Assembly: GCA_963755705.1 (NCBI GenBank)
Contig: CAVWKW010000001.1
Location: 165,884-229,883, forward strand
Direction of reading: 5' to 3'
DNA: 64,000 bases
DNA from: an uncultured delta proteobacterium
Lineage (GTDB): Bacteria; Desulfobacterota; Binatia; Binatales; Binataceae
The notes under the pieces were generated by a model. The model was not told the DNA's origin. It did not search any database and worked only from the letters and a program-made list of their open reading frames with translations. Made by a program: the position numbers and the translations under genes. Position 1 is the stretch's first letter. Each line of letters begins with the position of its first letter. Of this stretch, positions 49,851 to 56,768 are shown piece after piece.

Positions 49851-50900
49851 CTAGCGGAAACCCTGAATCGTCACGACCGCGGTCTGACCAGTGCGCAGCG
49901 GAAATTCCGGATTGCCGGGGTCGAGTGTGATCCGCACCGGGAAGCGCTGCGACAAACGAACCCAATTGAGCGTCGGCTCGACTTGAGGAAGCCCTTCAAC
50001 GCTGGCTCCGTTTTGCTGGTACAGCGCCCATCCGACGCCCTGCACGGTTCCTCGAAACGGATGATCGGGATAGCTGAGCAGATAGATCTGCGCGGTCATT
50101 CCGGGGCGGATATTGCCGAGAAAATTCTCGCGAAAATTCGCGACCACGTACCAGACCCGGTTATCGATCAGATTCAGCACGTCCCTGCCCTCGTTGGCGT
50201 ACTGTCCGACTGCGATATTGAGATTGGTGACGTAACCGTCGAACGGGGCGCTCACGTAGCAATAGTTAACATTCAGGCGTGCGTTGGTGACGTCGGCCTC
50301 GGCCTGCTTGCGGCGCGCGTTGATATCGCCGTACTGGCCAAGCTCGCTTTGTGCCTGGCTGACGGTCGCACGCGAATTTTCCACCGCGGCTTCCGCCGCA
50401 CGCAGCTTGCTGCGCGCATCGAAGACGTCGTTGGCGGTGACGTAATGCTTGGCAAGCAGCGGCTCGATGCGATGCAGATACTGGCGCGCGTATGCCAGGT
50501 CGGCCTCGCGGCGCTTCTGCTCGGAGCCTGCGGCGCGAATCGCGTCGTCGAGCCCGCTTATCTGCAGGTTGGTCAGTTGCAGCTTGGCAATGAGCGAATC
50601 GAGTGTTGCCTGGTATGGTCGCGGATCGACGATGAACAGCATATCGCCCTTGTGGACGTGCTGGTTGTCGACGATTGGGAGCTTGATTATGGGCCCGCTG
50701 ACGTGCGGCGCGACGCCGATTAGATTGGCGCGGACGTAGGCGTCGTCGGTGCGCGGATAGATGTAATAGAGCCGCGTCACCAGCAGGATCGCGACGATCG
50801 CGGCCACGATAATCGTGAGGCTGAGCAATCTTCCGATCGCCTTCAGCGCTGGATTATCCGCCGCTACTTCGTTTCCAGGAGCCACTGCGCCGCCCTTCAC
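49851..50900 (-). CDS. HlyD-family membrane-fusion/periplasmic adaptor protein (AaeA/EmrA-like)
   Basis: N-terminal TM anchor, coiled-coil segment, then beta-barrel region (GTVQGVGWALYQ...). Confidence 0.85.
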   Translation of the reverse strand: MKGGAVAPGNEVAADNPALKAIGRLLSLTIIVAAIVAILLVTRLYYIYPRTDDAYVRANLIGVAPHVSGPIIKLPIVDNQHVHKGDMLFIVDPRPYQATLDSLIAKLQLTNLQISGLDDAIRAAGSEQKRREADLAYARQYLHRIEPLLAKHYVTANDVFDARSKLRAAEAAVENSRATVSQAQSELGQYGDINARRKQAEADVTNARLNVNYCYVSAPFDGYVTNLNIAVGQYANEGRDVLNLIDNRVWYVVANFRENFLGNIRPGMTAQIYLLSYPDHPFRGTVQGVGWALYQQNGASVEGLPQVEPTLNWVRLSQRFPVRITLDPGNPEFPLRTGQTAVVTIQGFR

Positions 50901-51208
50901 ACCCGGTTAAAAAAGATTATCCAGAAGATGCATCCGAGCAGAATCGCCAGGCTCGCGTAAACCGCCGGCAGCGGCCACATATAGCGCTCGAGCCCGGAAG
51001 CGGCGAAGACCGGCCGCAGCAAAGCGGTGAGCGCCGCACCCACGATCGCGGCGACGAGCCAGCTCGGGAAATTTGCGCCCGCGATATTGACGATTGGATC
51101 GCATCCCGGCGCCGCGCACAGCGCGAATACCGCGATCCCCAGCCGCAGCGGGGTCGATGGTGCCCGATGAATCATGCCGGAAGATTCTACGCGTCGGATC
51201 GCGCGCAA
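50897..51208 (-). CDS. DUF1656-like small membrane protein (AaeX-like)
   Basis: Position upstream of HlyD/FUSC. The hydrophobic C-terminus LAILLGCIFWIIFFNRV resembles AaeX. Confidence 0.4.
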   Translation of the reverse strand: MRAIRRVESSGMIHRAPSTPLRLGIAVFALCAAPGCDPIVNIAGANFPSWLVAAIVGAALTALLRPVFAASGLERYMWPLPAVYASLAILLGCIFWIIFFNRV

Positions 51209-51433
51209 GCATCATCCTGGGGCGAGGAAAATTTTCTTCGATCGGCGCGATTTCGGAGCGCAGCCGGGTTAGGCTTGTGCCGGCCGCGGCCCGGATGAAC
51301 CGGACCGACGGACTTGGCAAGCACCATCTTGGGGGCCTTTATGCACCTGAAAACGATCACAAACTGCAACCCTCGCACGGTCGCCCGTAAGCGGCGCAAA
51401 CTGCGGCGTGCGGGAATTCCGAAGCGCGCGGTG

Positions 51434-52882
51434 ATGCTGATTCTTGCCGCCTCGATCGCGGGATGCGCCAGCTACGCCGAGCGGCCCGAGATCACGCCTG
51501 ATCTGTACTCGCCGGCCGCGGCCGATCAGCAGTGGAGTCCGGTCGCGCAACAGCAGCCGCAGTATCACGTGGCCGCGGTGACGCAGGAGATTGCGCAGGC
51601 AGCCTCTCAGGATCATTCGACGGTGACCGGATCGCACTATGACCTGCCGCGGCTGATCGATCTGGCGCTGCGGCTAAATCCGAGCACGCGCCAGTCGTGG
51701 CAAGCGGCGCGGTCGGCGGCCGCGTCTTATGGAATCGCTCAGGCGCCTTATTATCCGCGGGTTGGCTTTGAGACTGACGCCGGCTACAACCGCCTGCTGT
51801 TTCAGGTCGTTCCCGGACCTGCGGTAATCAAGCAATGGTCCGTCTCGCCGATGGGAGAGTTGACCTATACCCTGCTGGATTTCGGCCGGCGCAGTGCGGA
51901 CTCCGAATTGGCGCGCCAGGAACTCGCGGCCGCGAACTTTGGCTTTAATCGAACGATGCAGACCGTAGTGTACCAGGTACAGAGCAACTACTACTCGCTG
52001 GCCGCCGCGCAGGCTGCCGTGCAAGCCGCGACCGAGAACGTCGATCTCGCGCGCACCGACCTGGAAGCGGTCTCCCGCCGCGTAAACCTGGGACTCGCGA
52101 CCGAGCCCGCGCTGCTGCTCGCGCGCGAGACTGAGGCGCAGGCCGAGTTCCAGCTCGAAAGCGCGCACACTCTAGTGAACGATTCGCGCGCGGGACTCGC
52201 GGTCGCGGTCGGAGTGGCGGCCGATGAGCCGCTCGAGATTCAGAGCCTCGACAATCAGCCGGTGCCGAAGACGCTCGGCAAGGAAGTCCAGCAGTTGATC
52301 ACTGAGGCGGTTCGCGAGCGTCCCGACCTGGAGGCCGAAGCGGCGAAGTATCGCGCCAGCGAAGCCGCGGTGAAGCGCTCGCATGCCGAATGGTTTCCAG
52401 TGTTGACGGCGGACGCCAACTATGGCGAGCAGGCGTGGTGGTACACGTTTTCGAACTCGAACACGATCAAGAGTGCGTCGCCGCAATACGAGGCGTTGCT
52501 CACGCTGCGCTGGGACATCTTTACCGGCTTCAGCCGTCTCGACGACGATCGCCGCACAGAGGCCAATCGCAAAGCCGAGCGCGAAAGCGTGAAGTCGCTC
52601 GAAATCGAAACCATCGCGGAAGTATGGCGTTCGTACTACGACTTTCAGACCGCGGTGAAGAAATATCAGTTCGCGCAGGCGCTGCTCGCCGCCGCGCAGG
52701 AGTCATACAACGACAACCTCGATACCTATCGGCAGGGGCTCAGCACGATCGTCGAGCTTTTGACCGCCGACACCGCGCTCGCGAACGCGCGCCTGACGAT
52801 GGTCCAATCCACGGCCGAGCTACTGACCTCATCCGCGACGGTCGCATACGCGGTAGGCGCGGTGGATATGCCCAGGAGATGA
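51434..52882 (+). CDS. Outer-membrane efflux lipoprotein (NodT/TolC family)
   Basis: Lipobox LAASIAGC. Paired coiled-coil/beta-barrel repeats typical of TolC-like outer membrane factors. An alternative earlier start at 51341 is possible. Confidence 0.8.
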   Translation: MLILAASIAGCASYAERPEITPDLYSPAAADQQWSPVAQQQPQYHVAAVTQEIAQAASQDHSTVTGSHYDLPRLIDLALRLNPSTRQSWQAARSAAASYGIAQAPYYPRVGFETDAGYNRLLFQVVPGPAVIKQWSVSPMGELTYTLLDFGRRSADSELARQELAAANFGFNRTMQTVVYQVQSNYYSLAAAQAAVQAATENVDLARTDLEAVSRRVNLGLATEPALLLARETEAQAEFQLESAHTLVNDSRAGLAVAVGVAADEPLEIQSLDNQPVPKTLGKEVQQLITEAVRERPDLEAEAAKYRASEAAVKRSHAEWFPVLTADANYGEQAWWYTFSNSNTIKSASPQYEALLTLRWDIFTGFSRLDDDRRTEANRKAERESVKSLEIETIAEVWRSYYDFQTAVKKYQFAQALLAAAQESYNDNLDTYRQGLSTIVELLTADTALANARLTMVQSTAELLTSSATVAYAVGAVDMPRR

Positions 52883-52921
52883 GCAAAGCTGATAGCGTCT
52901 ATGTGATAAATCTGGATCGGC

Positions 52922-53104
52922 ATGAGAACCGCGATGAACAGACGACAGGCCGGTGAAACCGGTTCATTGACAGATTGGATTGATCGCCGGATCGATCGCG
53001 AAGGGTTGCGGCGGGAAGTCGATGAACTGGTCGATCAGATGATGATTCAGCAGCGGCTGACCGAAATGCGTCAGCGGGCCGGTATGACTCAGCGCGAGTT
53101 TTAA
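52922..53104 (+). pseudogene. HigA/XRE-family antitoxin-like N-terminal fragment (60 aa) ending at the MITE junction
   Basis: ...LTEMRQRAGMTQREF* stops where an HTH helix would begin. Downstream frames carry only degenerate remnants (e.g. PAVPRSAVKP). Confidence 0.4.
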
Positions 53105-53274
53105 GTGGCACAGGCTTTAGCCTGTGTCTTCGGCTCTTCGCCGCCTCTTCAAACTTTTCAGGGATCGGTAAAGTGTTGAGGATCTGAGTCTGGAATTTCC
53201 ATCCGGCTCATGAAAACTCTCTGAACTCAGATGATGACACCCATATTCTGAGGTCCTAAGAACACAGGCTAAAG
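53105..53274. mobile_element. MITE-like ~170-bp element with 24-bp terminal inverted repeats, each end itself a hairpin palindrome
   Basis: Left GTGGCACAGGCTTTAGCCTGTGTC (53105-53128) matches right AACACAGGCTAAAGCCTGTGCCAC (53251-53274) at 23/24. CACAGGCT..AGCCTGTG is internally palindromic. Flanks are TTAA and CTAA (TAA/TA-type duplication). Confidence 0.6.
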
Positions 53275-53595
53275 CCTGTGCCACCTAAGAACCAGCCGTG
53301 CCGCGTTCAGCAGTCAAGCCCTGCGGCGGAAGCTCGCGATTTGCTGCGCGGCGGAAGGAGGCGCGGCGCGGCGATTGATCTTTTCAGCAATCGCCGTGAC
53401 GCGCGGGTGAGGGTTCTGCTCTGCATCTTTCGCTGCGAAACGCCGTAAGTCGTCGTCCCGACGAAGCTCTGGCGGCAAATTTCCTCCTGCTTAATCCGGA
53501 TGCTGTTCGCACCATGCTCTCATGGCGCGACATACTTGATCTCGGCTTCGGCGACCGTTCGTCCGCGGAAATATTTGCTCAGAAATAACGAGGCC

Positions 53596-54384
53596 TCACT
53601 CGATTTTTACCAACAGCCCCTTGTTGCGGGCCGAGGCGAAAATCCAGTTGAAGAACAGGATCGCGGCCGCGAAGTAGCTCGCGTTCAGGCCGATGCCCCA
53701 CCAGAAGTGGACGCGCGAGAATCCGCCGCCGGCCAGTATCTGGCGCATCCCTTCGAACGCATGCGTCGTCGGCAGCATCCAGGCGATCGCGCGCAGCACG
53801 CGCGGCAGCGATTTGATCGGATAGAACACGCACGAGACCGGCTGCAGCAGTCCCGCGAAGCTCCACGCCAGCGTCTGGATTCGCGTCGTGTAGCGCACGA
53901 TCAGCCCGGCCATGATGATCCCGATCGCGAAGGCGAACAGGATCAGGTTCAGCATGTAGGGCAGGAACGCGCCGAGCAGCGGCACGATATTGAACCTGTA
54001 GGCTACGATCGCGATCGCGCTGGCGCACGCAAAACCGACGATCACCTTGACCACGTTCACGCAGATGAGCCCCGTGATGTATTCCCACACGCCCAGCGGC
54101 GAGGAGAACAGGTTGATCATGTTGCGCGCCCATAGCTCGTCGAGAAAACCAACCGTCATGTCGCGCTGGAACGCGAAAAATATTCCCCACAGGATCGCCG
54201 CGCCGAGCAGAAAGCTCACCAGGTCCGGGCGCAGGCGATTGCCCTGGCTCAAATAGATCGTGAAGAAGCCCCACAGGATGATATCCAGTACCGGCCAGTA
54301 AACCATGTCCATGAAGCGATCAATGTTGCGCCGTGCCTCATAGCAGTGGCGAACGATTACCGCCATTACGCGATGTAGTTTCAT
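53596..54384 (-). CDS. ABC-2 family transporter permease
   Basis: 262 aa, 6 TM. Start overlaps the ATPase stop. Confidence 0.75.
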   Translation of the reverse strand: MKLHRVMAVIVRHCYEARRNIDRFMDMVYWPVLDIILWGFFTIYLSQGNRLRPDLVSFLLGAAILWGIFFAFQRDMTVGFLDELWARNMINLFSSPLGVWEYITGLICVNVVKVIVGFACASAIAIVAYRFNIVPLLGAFLPYMLNLILFAFAIGIIMAGLIVRYTTRIQTLAWSFAGLLQPVSCVFYPIKSLPRVLRAIAWMLPTTHAFEGMRQILAGGGFSRVHFWWGIGLNASYFAAAILFFNWIFASARNKGLLVKIE

Positions 54385-55124
54385 GCACTAATCCTTTCCC
54401 GCACGATGCGCAGGAAGACTTCCTCGAGCGCGGGTTCGTCGCGTTCTTCTTTGAGAATCGCCTGCGTGATTTCGATCGGGCTGCCCTGAGCGATCACGCG
54501 GCCGTGATTAAGAAACACGATCCTGCTGCACATCTGCTCGACCTCGGCCATGTTGTGCGAGGTGTACAGGATGGTGGTGCCCTGCTCGCGCTGCACCCGC
54601 ATCATCATTTCCTTCACCTGCCACGCGATCTCCGGGTCGAGGTACGCGGTCGGCTCGTCGAGCAGCAACAGCCGCGGATCATTGAGCATCGCCTTGGCGA
54701 GCCCGACGCGCGTGTTTTCGCCCGACGACAGCCGCGCCACGGGTTTATTGCGCAGATCGGTGATGCCGAAGGTTTCGAGCAGTGCGTCGATCTTTTCGCG
54801 CCGGCGCGGCACGTTATATAGCCGCGCGAACACCAGCAGGTTCTCCAGCACCGTCAGCCGGTACGGAAAGGCCACATACGGCGAAGTGAAGTTGATCGCT
54901 TGCAAAATTTCCTCGCGATGCGTCCGGATGTCGTGGCCGAAAATCCGCACCTCGCCCTCGCTCGGCGTGATGAGGCCGAGAATCATGTGGATGGTCGTGG
55001 TCTTGCCCGCGCCATTGGGCCCGAGCATCCCGATGATCTCGCCGGGTTCGATTCCAAAGCTCACGTCATCGACGGCGGTGAAATTTCCGAAGCGTTTGGT
55101 CAGATGATTTACTTCAACCAGCAT
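54381..55124 (-). CDS. ABC transporter ATP-binding protein
   Basis: Walker A GPNGAGKTT, signature LSSGENTR-type, Walker B LLLLDEPT. Confidence 0.9.
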   Translation of the reverse strand: MLVEVNHLTKRFGNFTAVDDVSFGIEPGEIIGMLGPNGAGKTTTIHMILGLITPSEGEVRIFGHDIRTHREEILQAINFTSPYVAFPYRLTVLENLLVFARLYNVPRRREKIDALLETFGITDLRNKPVARLSSGENTRVGLAKAMLNDPRLLLLDEPTAYLDPEIAWQVKEMMMRVQREQGTTILYTSHNMAEVEQMCSRIVFLNHGRVIAQGSPIEITQAILKEERDEPALEEVFLRIVRERISA

Positions 55125-55448
55125 TTGAACTGTCTCCTGTCGTCCGTCGATTTGAGAGCCGGAAAGAAGAGCCGCAAAGCGAAAATGAAAAAGGCGGCTC
55201 TGGATGCTCGATGCACCCGGGGCCGCCTTTTATTTCCTGTTTCTGATACTACCTAATGGGCAGGAAGCAGGAGGAACGCGCACCCACGGGCCGATACCGC
55301 TTTATTTCGTTCGATGGCCAACATGGGTTTTTGCGCGAGCGCCTCCGGAAAACTCATTCAGACGCAGAGATGCTAGCATACGCGCCAAGGGCTGACTATC
55401 CTCGTGGGTACCGCTCGCGGCCCCTCAGGACCGCACCGTGGACCCATC

Positions 55449-56768
55449 ATGCGAACCGACCTTCGAACCGACCTGCGCGGCCTTCCGATCACGGCAAGCT
55501 CCGACGAAGCAATCGCCGCGATCGATCGCTACACCGACGCCGCGGTCGCGCTTAAGTCCGGCATGGATGCGATCGTCGCCGCCGCCGACGCGCATCGCGA
55601 CTGCGCGATGCTGCAAGCGTGCGCGGCTTCTCTGTTCGCCCTTTCGCAATCGACCGTGCAAGCGCGCCGCGGGAATCAGTATCTGGCGCGGGCGCGCGAG
55701 CGGATTGACGATCTGACCGAGCGCGAGCGGATTTTTATCGACGCGGTCAGTGCGGGATGCGAGGGCGACTTTATGCGCGCACTCGGATCGTACGAGCAGA
55801 TCGCCGAAAGGTGGCCGCGCGACCTGCTCGCGGCCAAGATCGCGGAGTTTCATTTTTTTGAAACCGGTCTTGCCGCGCGCCAGCTCGGCTTCATGGAAAA
55901 GATCGCGCCCGCCAATCGTGATTCGAGCCACGCGCAGGCGATGCTCGCGTTCGCGTGCGAGCTCAATGCGATGCGCCCGCGGGCTGAAGAGCTGGCGGTC
56001 CAGGCCCTGGAGCAGGAGCCGCTAACGATGTGGGCTCAGCATTGCCTGGCGCACGTCTTTGCAGGCGACTCGCGAGTAGCCGAAGGGGTTGCGGCGCTGG
56101 AACGCTATGCGTCATCGTGGGATCGCTTCGGGCAATACATCCAGTCGCACAATACGTTCCATCTGGCGACGCTCTATCGGACCAGGCTCGAGTTCGGCCG
56201 CGTGCTCGACGCGTACCGCCGGCATATCTGGGGTTTTCAGCCGGACGCGGTCGTCGAGCATACCGACGCGATCCTGCTCTTGTGGTACGTCGAGCTGGCG
56301 GGCGGTGACGTTGGCGGACGCTGGAGTGAGATCGCGCCGCACGTGCGCGCCAAAGTGCACGAGCAGGTCTTTCCGTTCCTGAACTCTATCTATCTGTATG
56401 CGCTCGAGCGGGCAGGCGAGTCGGCGGAGGTCGATCGCGCGCTCGATGAAATGCGCCGCTATGCCGAGCGCCAGAATGGCGCCACGGCGCGAGTTTGGAA
56501 CCAGGTCGGGATGGCCCAGGCGCGCGGATGCGTTGCGTACGCGCGCGGCGACTTCGATCGCGCGGCCGACGCGCTCGGCGCGATCCTGCCGGAGATCGCG
56601 ATTTGCGGCGGCAGCGACGAGCAGCGCGGTGTCTTCCACGAAGCACACTTCATGAGCCTGATTAAGACGGGGCGCAAGCGCGAGGCCGCAGGCGCGCTCA
56701 CCGGCTATGTTGGCGCGAGTCCGACTACGAAACTCGATCGCCGATGGTTCGAGATGGCCGGCGTCTGA
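55449..56768 (+). CDS. Tetratricopeptide-repeat protein (TTC38-like family)
   Basis: Helical repeat architecture over ~440 aa. Family assignment from memory. Confidence 0.55.
   Translation: MRTDLRTDLRGLPITASSDEAIAAIDRYTDAAVALKSGMDAIVAAADAHRDCAMLQACAASLFALSQSTVQARRGNQYLARARERIDDLTERERIFIDAVSAGCEGDFMRALGSYEQIAERWPRDLLAAKIAEFHFFETGLAARQLGFMEKIAPANRDSSHAQAMLAFACELNAMRPRAEELAVQALEQEPLTMWAQHCLAHVFAGDSRVAEGVAALERYASSWDRFGQYIQSHNTFHLATLYRTRLEFGRVLDAYRRHIWGFQPDAVVEHTDAILLLWYVELAGGDVGGRWSEIAPHVRAKVHEQVFPFLNSIYLYALERAGESAEVDRALDEMRRYAERQNGATARVWNQVGMAQARGCVAYARGDFDRAADALGAILPEIAICGGSDEQRGVFHEAHFMSLIKTGRKREAAGALTGYVGASPTTKLDRRWFEMAGV

Follow-up and report, generated by a model that had tools for sequence, protein, structure and literature searches.

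The segment at 53098-53291 of the window, the 64,000-nucleotide stretch of an uncultured Binataceae contig that was analysed, is with a probability of roughly 0.9, as judged from sequence comparison, a decayed REPtron in which two inverted REP hairpins enclose what is left of a rayT transposase gene on the minus strand (REP / delta-rayT / REP). The original prediction had described a non-autonomous, MITE-like element lying in or next to a decaying orphan antitoxin gene. Its non-autonomous character is retained, since rayT is internally deleted, as is its position against a decaying orphan antitoxin, represented by a truncated XRE open reading frame with no accompanying toxin gene. The classification as a MITE is replaced, given that the interior is an internally deleted rayT and the recurring unit is a 22-nt REP.

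Hairpin termini and the remains of rayT

A repeat search of the window identified 27-nt inverted arms at 53101-53127 and 53262-53288, which are complementary at 26 of 27 positions (96%) and separated by a 134-nt interior. The inverted repeats predicted at 24 bp (23/24 identical) are therefore real, although slightly longer than proposed. Both arms contain the near-palindrome CACAGGCT(TT/AA)AGCCTGTG, and this 18-mer, allowing at most three mismatches, was present at only two sites in the 64 kb, namely the two arms, and at none in 100 shuffles. The 26-mer of each arm is predicted, at -7.3 to -7.7 kcal/mol (z -3.3 to -3.9), to form a hairpin whose 8-bp stem carries a loop of 4 nt, with GTG(G) left unpaired on the 5' side of the stem, in agreement with the earlier description of each repeat as itself palindromic. 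The fold of the whole unit reaches -47.7 kcal/mol (z -8.8), and the GC content within it is 0.43-0.49 against approximately 0.6 or more in the surrounding sequence, as expected from its description as an AT-richer segment.

Both termini of the unit are perfect copies of the 22-mer GTGG-CACAGGC-TTTA-GCCTGTG. The first copy, GTGGCACAGGCTTTAGCCTGTG, occupies 53105-53126 on the plus strand, combines the GTGG head with a stem of 8 bp and the loop TTTA, and constitutes the 3' REP of the unit; the second, the same 22-mer at 53263-53284 on the minus strand, constitutes the 5' REP. These are the only two REP copies in the 64-kb window, they lie 158 nt apart from start to start, and together with the interior they form a 188-bp composite of REP, interior and inverted REP. 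Their GTGG heads point outward, as in the units at loci L087 and L099 of related genomes. In a membership test, the 22-nt unit was found to be a palindromic stem-loop within the 20-40 nt of the REP definition, with GTGG in the place of the GTAG-type head; GTGG is a documented variant of the GTAG head (PMC2817692, PMC3733652).

The interior aligns with the 5' part of rayT units that are intact in related genomes. By alignment to four such units (L144, L140, L139 and L141), the rayT remnant was placed at 53117-53211 on the minus strand, with an ATG at 53211-53209 that opens a 17-codon frame (MSRMEIPDSDPQHFTDP) ending in TGA at 53160-53158; the counterpart of this peptide in the intact protein P0036 is MSRKESSDSDPRHFQEIDPWKSEDL. 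Between the ATG and the 5' REP, at 53212-53262 on the same strand, lies a remnant of the rayT 5' untranslated or promoter region that is collinear with L144 (TCTTAAAATCTCAGGAGCTGGGTATCATCATCTGAGTTTCGAGAAGTTTA). With the REPs excluded, a gapless alignment of the interior to the 5' untranslated region and first codons of L144 was identical at 72 of 91 positions, and its score of 87 compares with 16.9 +/- 2.4 (maximum 31) for the dinucleotide-shuffle null (z 29.7); against L140 the corresponding z was 21.

The remnant contains a 6-nt deletion, a conserved Trp codon changed to TGA (TAG in the relative L131) and a +1 insertion, and its homology to rayT extends to approximately codon 30, near 53131. 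In the comparison with L140, no match to the middle of rayT was found in the interior. After this gap the final four codons, GAA GAC ACA GGC, followed by TAA, are present at 53131-53117, with the stop codon inside the left REP at 53119-53117, where it is contained in the complement of the first REP copy. Approximately 414 nt of rayT have thus been deleted, including the HUH and catalytic-tyrosine motifs. The deletion junction on the minus strand (...GGCGGCGAAGAGCCGAAGACACAGG) is approximate, as some 15 nt before the last codons align only loosely to rayT. The unit therefore retains the order REP, rayT, inverted REP and its conserved junctions (outer flanks, REPs, 5' untranslated region and a stop codon within the REP) without encoding a RAYT-type Y1 transposase with HUH and Tyr motifs, and the loss of the HUH/Tyr region makes it a relic and not a working REPtron. 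It would no longer be able to make transposase, and no other rayT was detected by tblastn in the 64-kb window. Gutted or shortened units are also present elsewhere: in L011 the C-terminal 41 amino acids remain (73% identical, E 6e-19), and in L003 and L024 parts of the N-terminus.

Intact units, outer flanks and the spread of the REP family

Leads to rayT in the fetched loci were obtained from the motif HxH...YxxNP and from tblastn with an E. coli YafM sequence that served purely as a probe, and were confirmed with Pfam and NCBIfam. The rayT reading frames in L087 and L099 are bracketed by the 22-nt REP in inverted orientation, and both exceed the gathering score of Pfam Y1_Tnp. The proteins P0036 and P0007 score 107.9 and 95 bits against a cut-off of 80 for the NCBIfam equivalog NF047646, 'REP-associated tyrosine transposase', and the intact relatives fall short of the IS200 model NF033573 (24-26 bits, cut-off 55). 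A homology search gave 102 relatives, many of them labelled 'REP element-mobilizing transposase RayT' by JGI. The association of rayT with inverted copies of the same REP was observed in L087, L099 and L139-L144, which all come from Binataceae or from metagenomes related to them, and a single layout is common to the intact units L139/L138, L140, L141-143 and L144: outer flank TTCTTARGT, REP, an untranslated region of approximately 50 nt, a rayT of approximately 172 codons, inverted REP and a further outer flank, for example CCACTTAAAAC. The end of the intact rayT, GAA GAC ACA GGC TAA/TGA, extends into the inverted REP. More distant RayTs (L146, L147) have REPs of another kind, with a GTAG head, as cognate pairing would predict.

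Several side observations concern these loci. The intact REPtron of L099 lies between two copies of a 24-nt direct repeat, CTCATCGAGCAGCGCCTTGGCCTC (1167-1192 and 1843-1868), which encodes ...EAKALLDE, and the rayT relics L003 and L011 together with the REP site L119 adjoin paralogous cyclase-like genes; co-duplication or a preferred site may account for these arrangements. The rayT encoding P0031 is found on two contigs of ERZ25039501, L138 (contig_68436) and L139 (contig_14823), which have identical upstream genes (mnmE, gidA) and differ by an indel of approximately 1 kb downstream of rayT. This pair need not represent two genomic copies and could instead stem from strain heterogeneity or from duplication in the assembly.

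The outer flanks of the intact units are also present in the window. On the minus strand, the 3' outer flank TTAAAAC lies at 53098-53104 and the 5' outer flank TTCTTAG at 53285-53291, both of which are conserved at intact units. In L139, CCACTTAAAAC comes after the REP that lies downstream of rayT, and in L140 and L141 it comes after REP copies upstream of the rayT units, whose own 3' REPs have CCACCTGAGAG and CCACTTCAGAG in this place. The 5' REPs of L140, L139 and L144 are preceded by TTCTTAGGT, TTCTTAAGT or TTCGTAAGT. Across Binatia-like loci the consensus upstream of the REP is T-rich and then R-G-T.

These flanks bear on the reading of the unit as a DDE-transposon MITE (of IS630/Tc1, IS5 or a similar type) that inserted at TA/TTAA and carries terminal inverted repeats and a target duplication. 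The 27-nt inverted termini, the adjoining TTAA and CTAA and the AT-richer interior would all suit such an element, and TTAA (53101-53104) and CTAA (53285-53288) are present as predicted. Both tetranucleotides, however, fall within the outer flanks that are conserved at intact rayT units, and as direct repeats the two flanks of a site are no more alike than permuted pairs are (3.80 vs 3.75 and 3.82 vs 3.67 matches of 8). There is thus no site-specific direct repeat around the REPs and hence no target-site duplication, so that the proposed TA/TAA duplication falls away. Further, in related genomes the REPs that form these termini are paired with a Y1 (HUH) transposase, the autonomous relative of the unit being a Y1 rayT unit and not a DDE element, the interior is homologous to rayT, and blastn against a plasmid collection returned no match to the unit. 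A DDE-derived MITE is accordingly highly improbable. Of the two sources of transposase originally suggested, the IS200/IS605-like one was close, the partner being an IS200/IS605-related Y1 enzyme, and the IS630/Tc1 one, a DDE enzyme, was not. The CTAAGAA found on either side of the right REP, which has similar counterparts at other sites, was separately considered as a target duplication and was rejected as a consensus feature that is not site-specific, on the basis of the permutation test.

To place the REP among other genomes, 185,579 genomes, one per bacterial species, were scanned with the query GGCACAGGCTWWAGCCTGTG. The scan returned at least 120 REP loci, compared with an estimated 4 or so expected by chance, in soil MAGs assigned to Binataceae or 'uncultured delta proteobacterium' and to several classes of Acidobacteriota, with many of the contigs of megabase size. 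An identical 22-mer occurs in the Acidobacteriota groups Bryobacterales, Terriglobia, Acidiferrales, Blastocatellia and Pyrinomonadaceae. The first REP copy of the window is identical to the commonest 22-mer, which accounts for 105 of 151 relaxed matches among the 120 listed loci, and among the matches listed a single MAG contributes as many as 8 loci. The G and T preceding GGCAC are conserved at 91-98% over 139 sites; since the two bases before the motif are nearly always GT, the repeated unit is the 22-mer, and outside it the sequence varies from locus to locus among the listed loci. The stem is maintained in variants through compensatory changes (CAGACT/AGTCTG, CCGGCT/AGCCGG). Two Gemmatimonadales matches, L063 and L113, do not have the GT head and may be due to chance.

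Inverted REP doublets and clusters are frequent in the listed loci, the doublets typically measuring 25-53 nt from start to start, and some belong to families with conserved spacers at several loci and in several genomes. No further copies of the 188-bp composite were found in the 120 listed loci. The recurring element, as far as these loci indicate, is the 22-nt GTGG-headed REP with short flanks and not the composite. A metagenome scan with a 21-mer from the interior returned 0 matches, and it also missed JGI contigs known to contain this 21-mer, so that its outcome carries little weight. Clustering of the reading frames around the 120 listed loci revealed ordinary chromosomal genes with no enriched transposase.

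A second alternative is that the unit is a live, REPIN-like, non-autonomous element, i.e. a multi-copy REP-spacer-REP doublet that is still being copied by a RayT encoded elsewhere in the genome. Such an element would be expected to have two inverted, perfect REPs able to form a long hairpin, as here, and the occurrence of doublet families with conserved spacers within this REP family, together with the intactness of the REPs beside an interior with disabling mutations, is in keeping with it. On the other hand, the 158-nt separation in the window exceeds the typical 25-53 nt, the 134-nt interior had no match in the 120 listed loci (approximately 0.9 Mb, none of it from the source species) other than at its ends (at most 46 nt), and three lineages have the unit at one and the same position, with identical junctions. 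Continued copying of this kind is consequently unlikely, and the decayed REPtron is retained as the preferred reading. A RayT acting in trans could still bind the intact REPs of that relic in single-stranded hairpin form and cleave them; otherwise they would act only as hairpins between convergent transcription units.

Some of the Acidobacteriota loci differ in their arrangement. Tandem arrays were observed in Acidobacteriota MAGs, made up of the REP with an identical spacer at L105 3905-4030 (period 68 nt) and L080 6848-6920 (53 nt), or of densely spaced REPs in a single orientation at L012 35-165; they contrast with the inverted doublets typical of Binatia. At L019 3560-4290, in the Bryobacterales MAG CAVOPN010000005.1, a frameshifted RayT-like gene lies amid identical 22-nt REPs, the nearest of which on either side are in the same orientation. 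Its best NCBIfam match is NF047646, at 36.7 bits and below the cut-off, and its protein shares only 30% identity with P0036, a Binataceae RayT. Identical REPs thus accompany transposases of very different sequence in two phyla, Binatota and Acidobacteriota.

The truncated antitoxin gene and the history of the locus

The unit lies between convergent genes, with an OEP gene and the XRE reading frame directed rightward and ABC-2 and ABC ATPase genes directed leftward. The XRE frame, HigA-like and 60 amino acids long, extends over 52922-53104 on the plus strand, with an alternative start at 52934 (56 amino acids), and ends ...GMTQRE-F-stop. It corresponds to the N-terminal half of an HTH_37/XRE protein and ends in helix 2 of the HTH. 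When a profile of this frame and two orthologs was searched with HMMER against 1.8 billion representative proteins, it matched P0004 (114 amino acids, E 2e-7, residues 1-54) and P0005 (101 amino acids), both of which are complete HTH_37/HTH_3 proteins according to Pfam. The P0004 gene directly follows, and overlaps the stop codon of, a Gp49 (PF05973) toxin gene, and the two are a HigBA-like pair. The predicted 60-codon half of a HigA/XRE antitoxin that stops at the junction is thereby corroborated. The window frame itself has no Pfam or NCBIfam match and does not contain a complete HTH, there is no toxin gene beside it, and the OEP gene ends 39 nt upstream; by these comparisons it is a truncated orphan fragment of a HigA-like antitoxin. 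In comparisons with the relatives L131 and L137, pN/pS over 52934-53101 was 0.20, 0.22 and 0.56, a synonymous excess that, although the DNA-binding half is missing, hints weakly that the 56-62-amino-acid fragment may still be translated.

The end of the fragment coincides with the end of the unit. Homology to the antitoxin family stops at ...CAGCGCGA(G), exactly at the REPtron boundary, and the REPtron flank GTTTTAA provides the TAA stop together with two bases of the final Phe codon (53099-53101), the first T of which lies outside the flank. The unit was probably joined to the middle of a HigA-like XRE gene, by insertion or by REP-mediated rearrangement, in an event that severed the helix-turn-helix and gave the XRE frame its last codon and its stop. 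Degenerate antitoxin remnants had been described downstream, but no HTH signal was found in the frames after the element at Pfam E<=10 or in three read-through reconstructions, and in tblastn searches for the antitoxin C-terminus with P0004 and P0005, in-silico excision of the element gained only approximately 3 bits. The two small reading frames inside and after the element have no Pfam or NCBIfam match. With no C-terminal XRE half detectable after the element, a simple, clean insertion is not demonstrated, and as no empty site was found among the relatives (L121-L125 and L131-L137 all have the relic), it is from the boundary only that insertion into the XRE gene is deduced. Insertion and REP-mediated rearrangement are equally possible.

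The relic, joined at identical points, is found in the five near-identical assemblies L121-L125 and in the more distant L131 and L137; in these relatives, as in the window, it has an outer-membrane efflux gene on one side and a convergent ABC-2 transporter operon on the other. The 134-nt interior is conserved in the orthologous loci of L131 and L137. As the relic and its junctions are common to three species-level relatives, it predates their split. The relic differs from its L137 counterpart by 4.4%, compared with a synonymous divergence of 25-36% in the flanking genes. It had seemed 3-6 times more conserved than synonymous sites, and functional constraint was considered, but this was dropped after a sliding-window comparison placed the relic exceptionally close to L137 and exceptionally far from L131.

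A third reading is that the unit has been exapted as a regulatory element, either as a pair of terminator or mRNA-stabilising hairpins between the convergent operons or as a small RNA from the old rayT 5' region. Its position between convergent genes would favour such a role, as would the reported effects of REPs on termination and mRNA stability in other bacteria (PMC3733652) and its low divergence from L137, which ranks it in the bottom 1.1% of 190-nt windows across the locus. Against L131, however, the unit is more diverged than 89% of 190-nt windows, and this divergence pattern points to mosaic ancestry by recombination among related lineages rather than to steady constraint. There were also no promoter-like or terminator-like sites in a scan of 52700-53700 and no Rfam match at E<=1 over 50000-56000, and the changes in the 17-codon remnant frame among orthologs are mostly amino-acid replacements. 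Regulatory exaptation is therefore improbable, and the unit continues to be regarded as a decayed REPtron.

A separate feature was noted just beyond the unit. Over the 186 nt at 53325-53510 the window is 100% identical to L131, with the neighbouring sequence 2-12% different, and the counterpart in L137 is unrelated sequence with a 59-amino-acid minus-strand reading frame. In the core at 53354-53430, GGCGATTG and CAATCGCC form a hairpin across 10 nt, with GTGACGCGYGGGTGAGGGTKCTGCTCTGC after it, and this core matches two intergenic copies in a Binatia-like MAG at 88% (L066 1684-1760 and 2423-2497). It has no Rfam match and looks like a second intergenic repeat family, to judge from these copies.

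Relation to known systems and implications

Genes of the rayT type flanked by inverted REPs have been described (PMC2817692), and in E. coli B2 strains tnpAREP has been lost while the flanking REPs were kept (Ton-Hoang et al. 2012, PMC3333891). The window unit resembles the E. coli REPtron (PMC3333891) in its chromosomal, extragenic location and in the placement of a Y1 HUH gene between REP hairpins with a conserved 5' tetranucleotide, and it resembles the B2 derivatives (PMC3333891) in that the transposase gene is gone and the REPs are retained. However, the loss in B2 strains was described as precise excision, whereas the window unit underwent an internal deletion that left the 5' untranslated region and approximately 30 initial and the last 4 codons of rayT. 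The REP stem also differs, being a perfect 8-bp stem with a GTGG head in the window and a bulged stem with GTAG in E. coli, and, unlike the E. coli case, the unit abuts a truncated antitoxin gene and several truncated copies are present in related genomes.

There is also a likeness to the Group 3-type systems, the Stenotrophomonas maltophilia REPtron Sm and the REPINs of Pseudomonas fluorescens SBW25 with their GTGG-headed REPs (PMC8266576, PMC2817692, PMC3116915), in which a perfect palindrome likewise comes right after the GTAG/GTGG head, inverted doublets (REPINs) have conserved spacers and rayT lies between inverted REPs. These published systems (PMC8266576, PMC2817692, PMC3116915) are described as lineage-specific and vertically inherited, whereas Binataceae and Acidobacteriota share the 22-mer, which in the latter lies beside a RayT-like gene with only 30% identity. 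With IS200/IS605 elements the unit has in common the Y1 HUH type of transposase, DNA hairpins in a subterminal position and, 5' of the hairpin, a guide tetranucleotide; it differs from them in that the intact relatives are below the IS200 and above the RAYT cut-off of NCBIfam and in that its hairpins form an inverted pair instead of lying on one strand. As regards HigBA (Gp49 toxin and HTH_37 XRE antitoxin), the N-terminal 54 residues of the reading frame match P0004, which occupies the antitoxin position, but the window has neither a toxin gene nor the C-terminal half of the HTH.

A REP/RayT relic is thus a known kind of element. No description of REP/RAYT for Binataceae was found in the searchable literature, and in that literature the REP family in Binataceae appears undescribed. 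For annotation, an apparent new MITE becomes a recognisable REP/RayT relic, and a REP family (GTGGCACAGGCTTTAGCCTGTG) is identified together with its transposase in Binataceae, an uncultured soil lineage. The unit offers a clean example of a "MITE-like" architecture arising through internal deletion of a REPtron, and it is one in which the boundary of a REP unit coincides with the truncation of a toxin-antitoxin gene.

A broader interpretation, put forward tentatively and with considerable doubt, is that the Binataceae REPtron is a mobile, multi-copy unit that leaves truncated or deleted copies at several loci, the present one having cut a toxin-antitoxin gene, and that an identical 22-nt REP is maintained in Binatota and Acidobacteriota beside RayTs of approximately 30% identity. 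If true, this would argue against REP/RAYT systems as single-copy, lineage-specific and strictly vertical, and would imply either inter-phylum spread of the REP or extreme conservation of the hairpin that RayT recognises. The occurrence of the same REP by a divergent Acidobacteriota RayT, together with the several rayT relics in Binataceae, could be of interest for the evolution of REPIN/RAYT systems.
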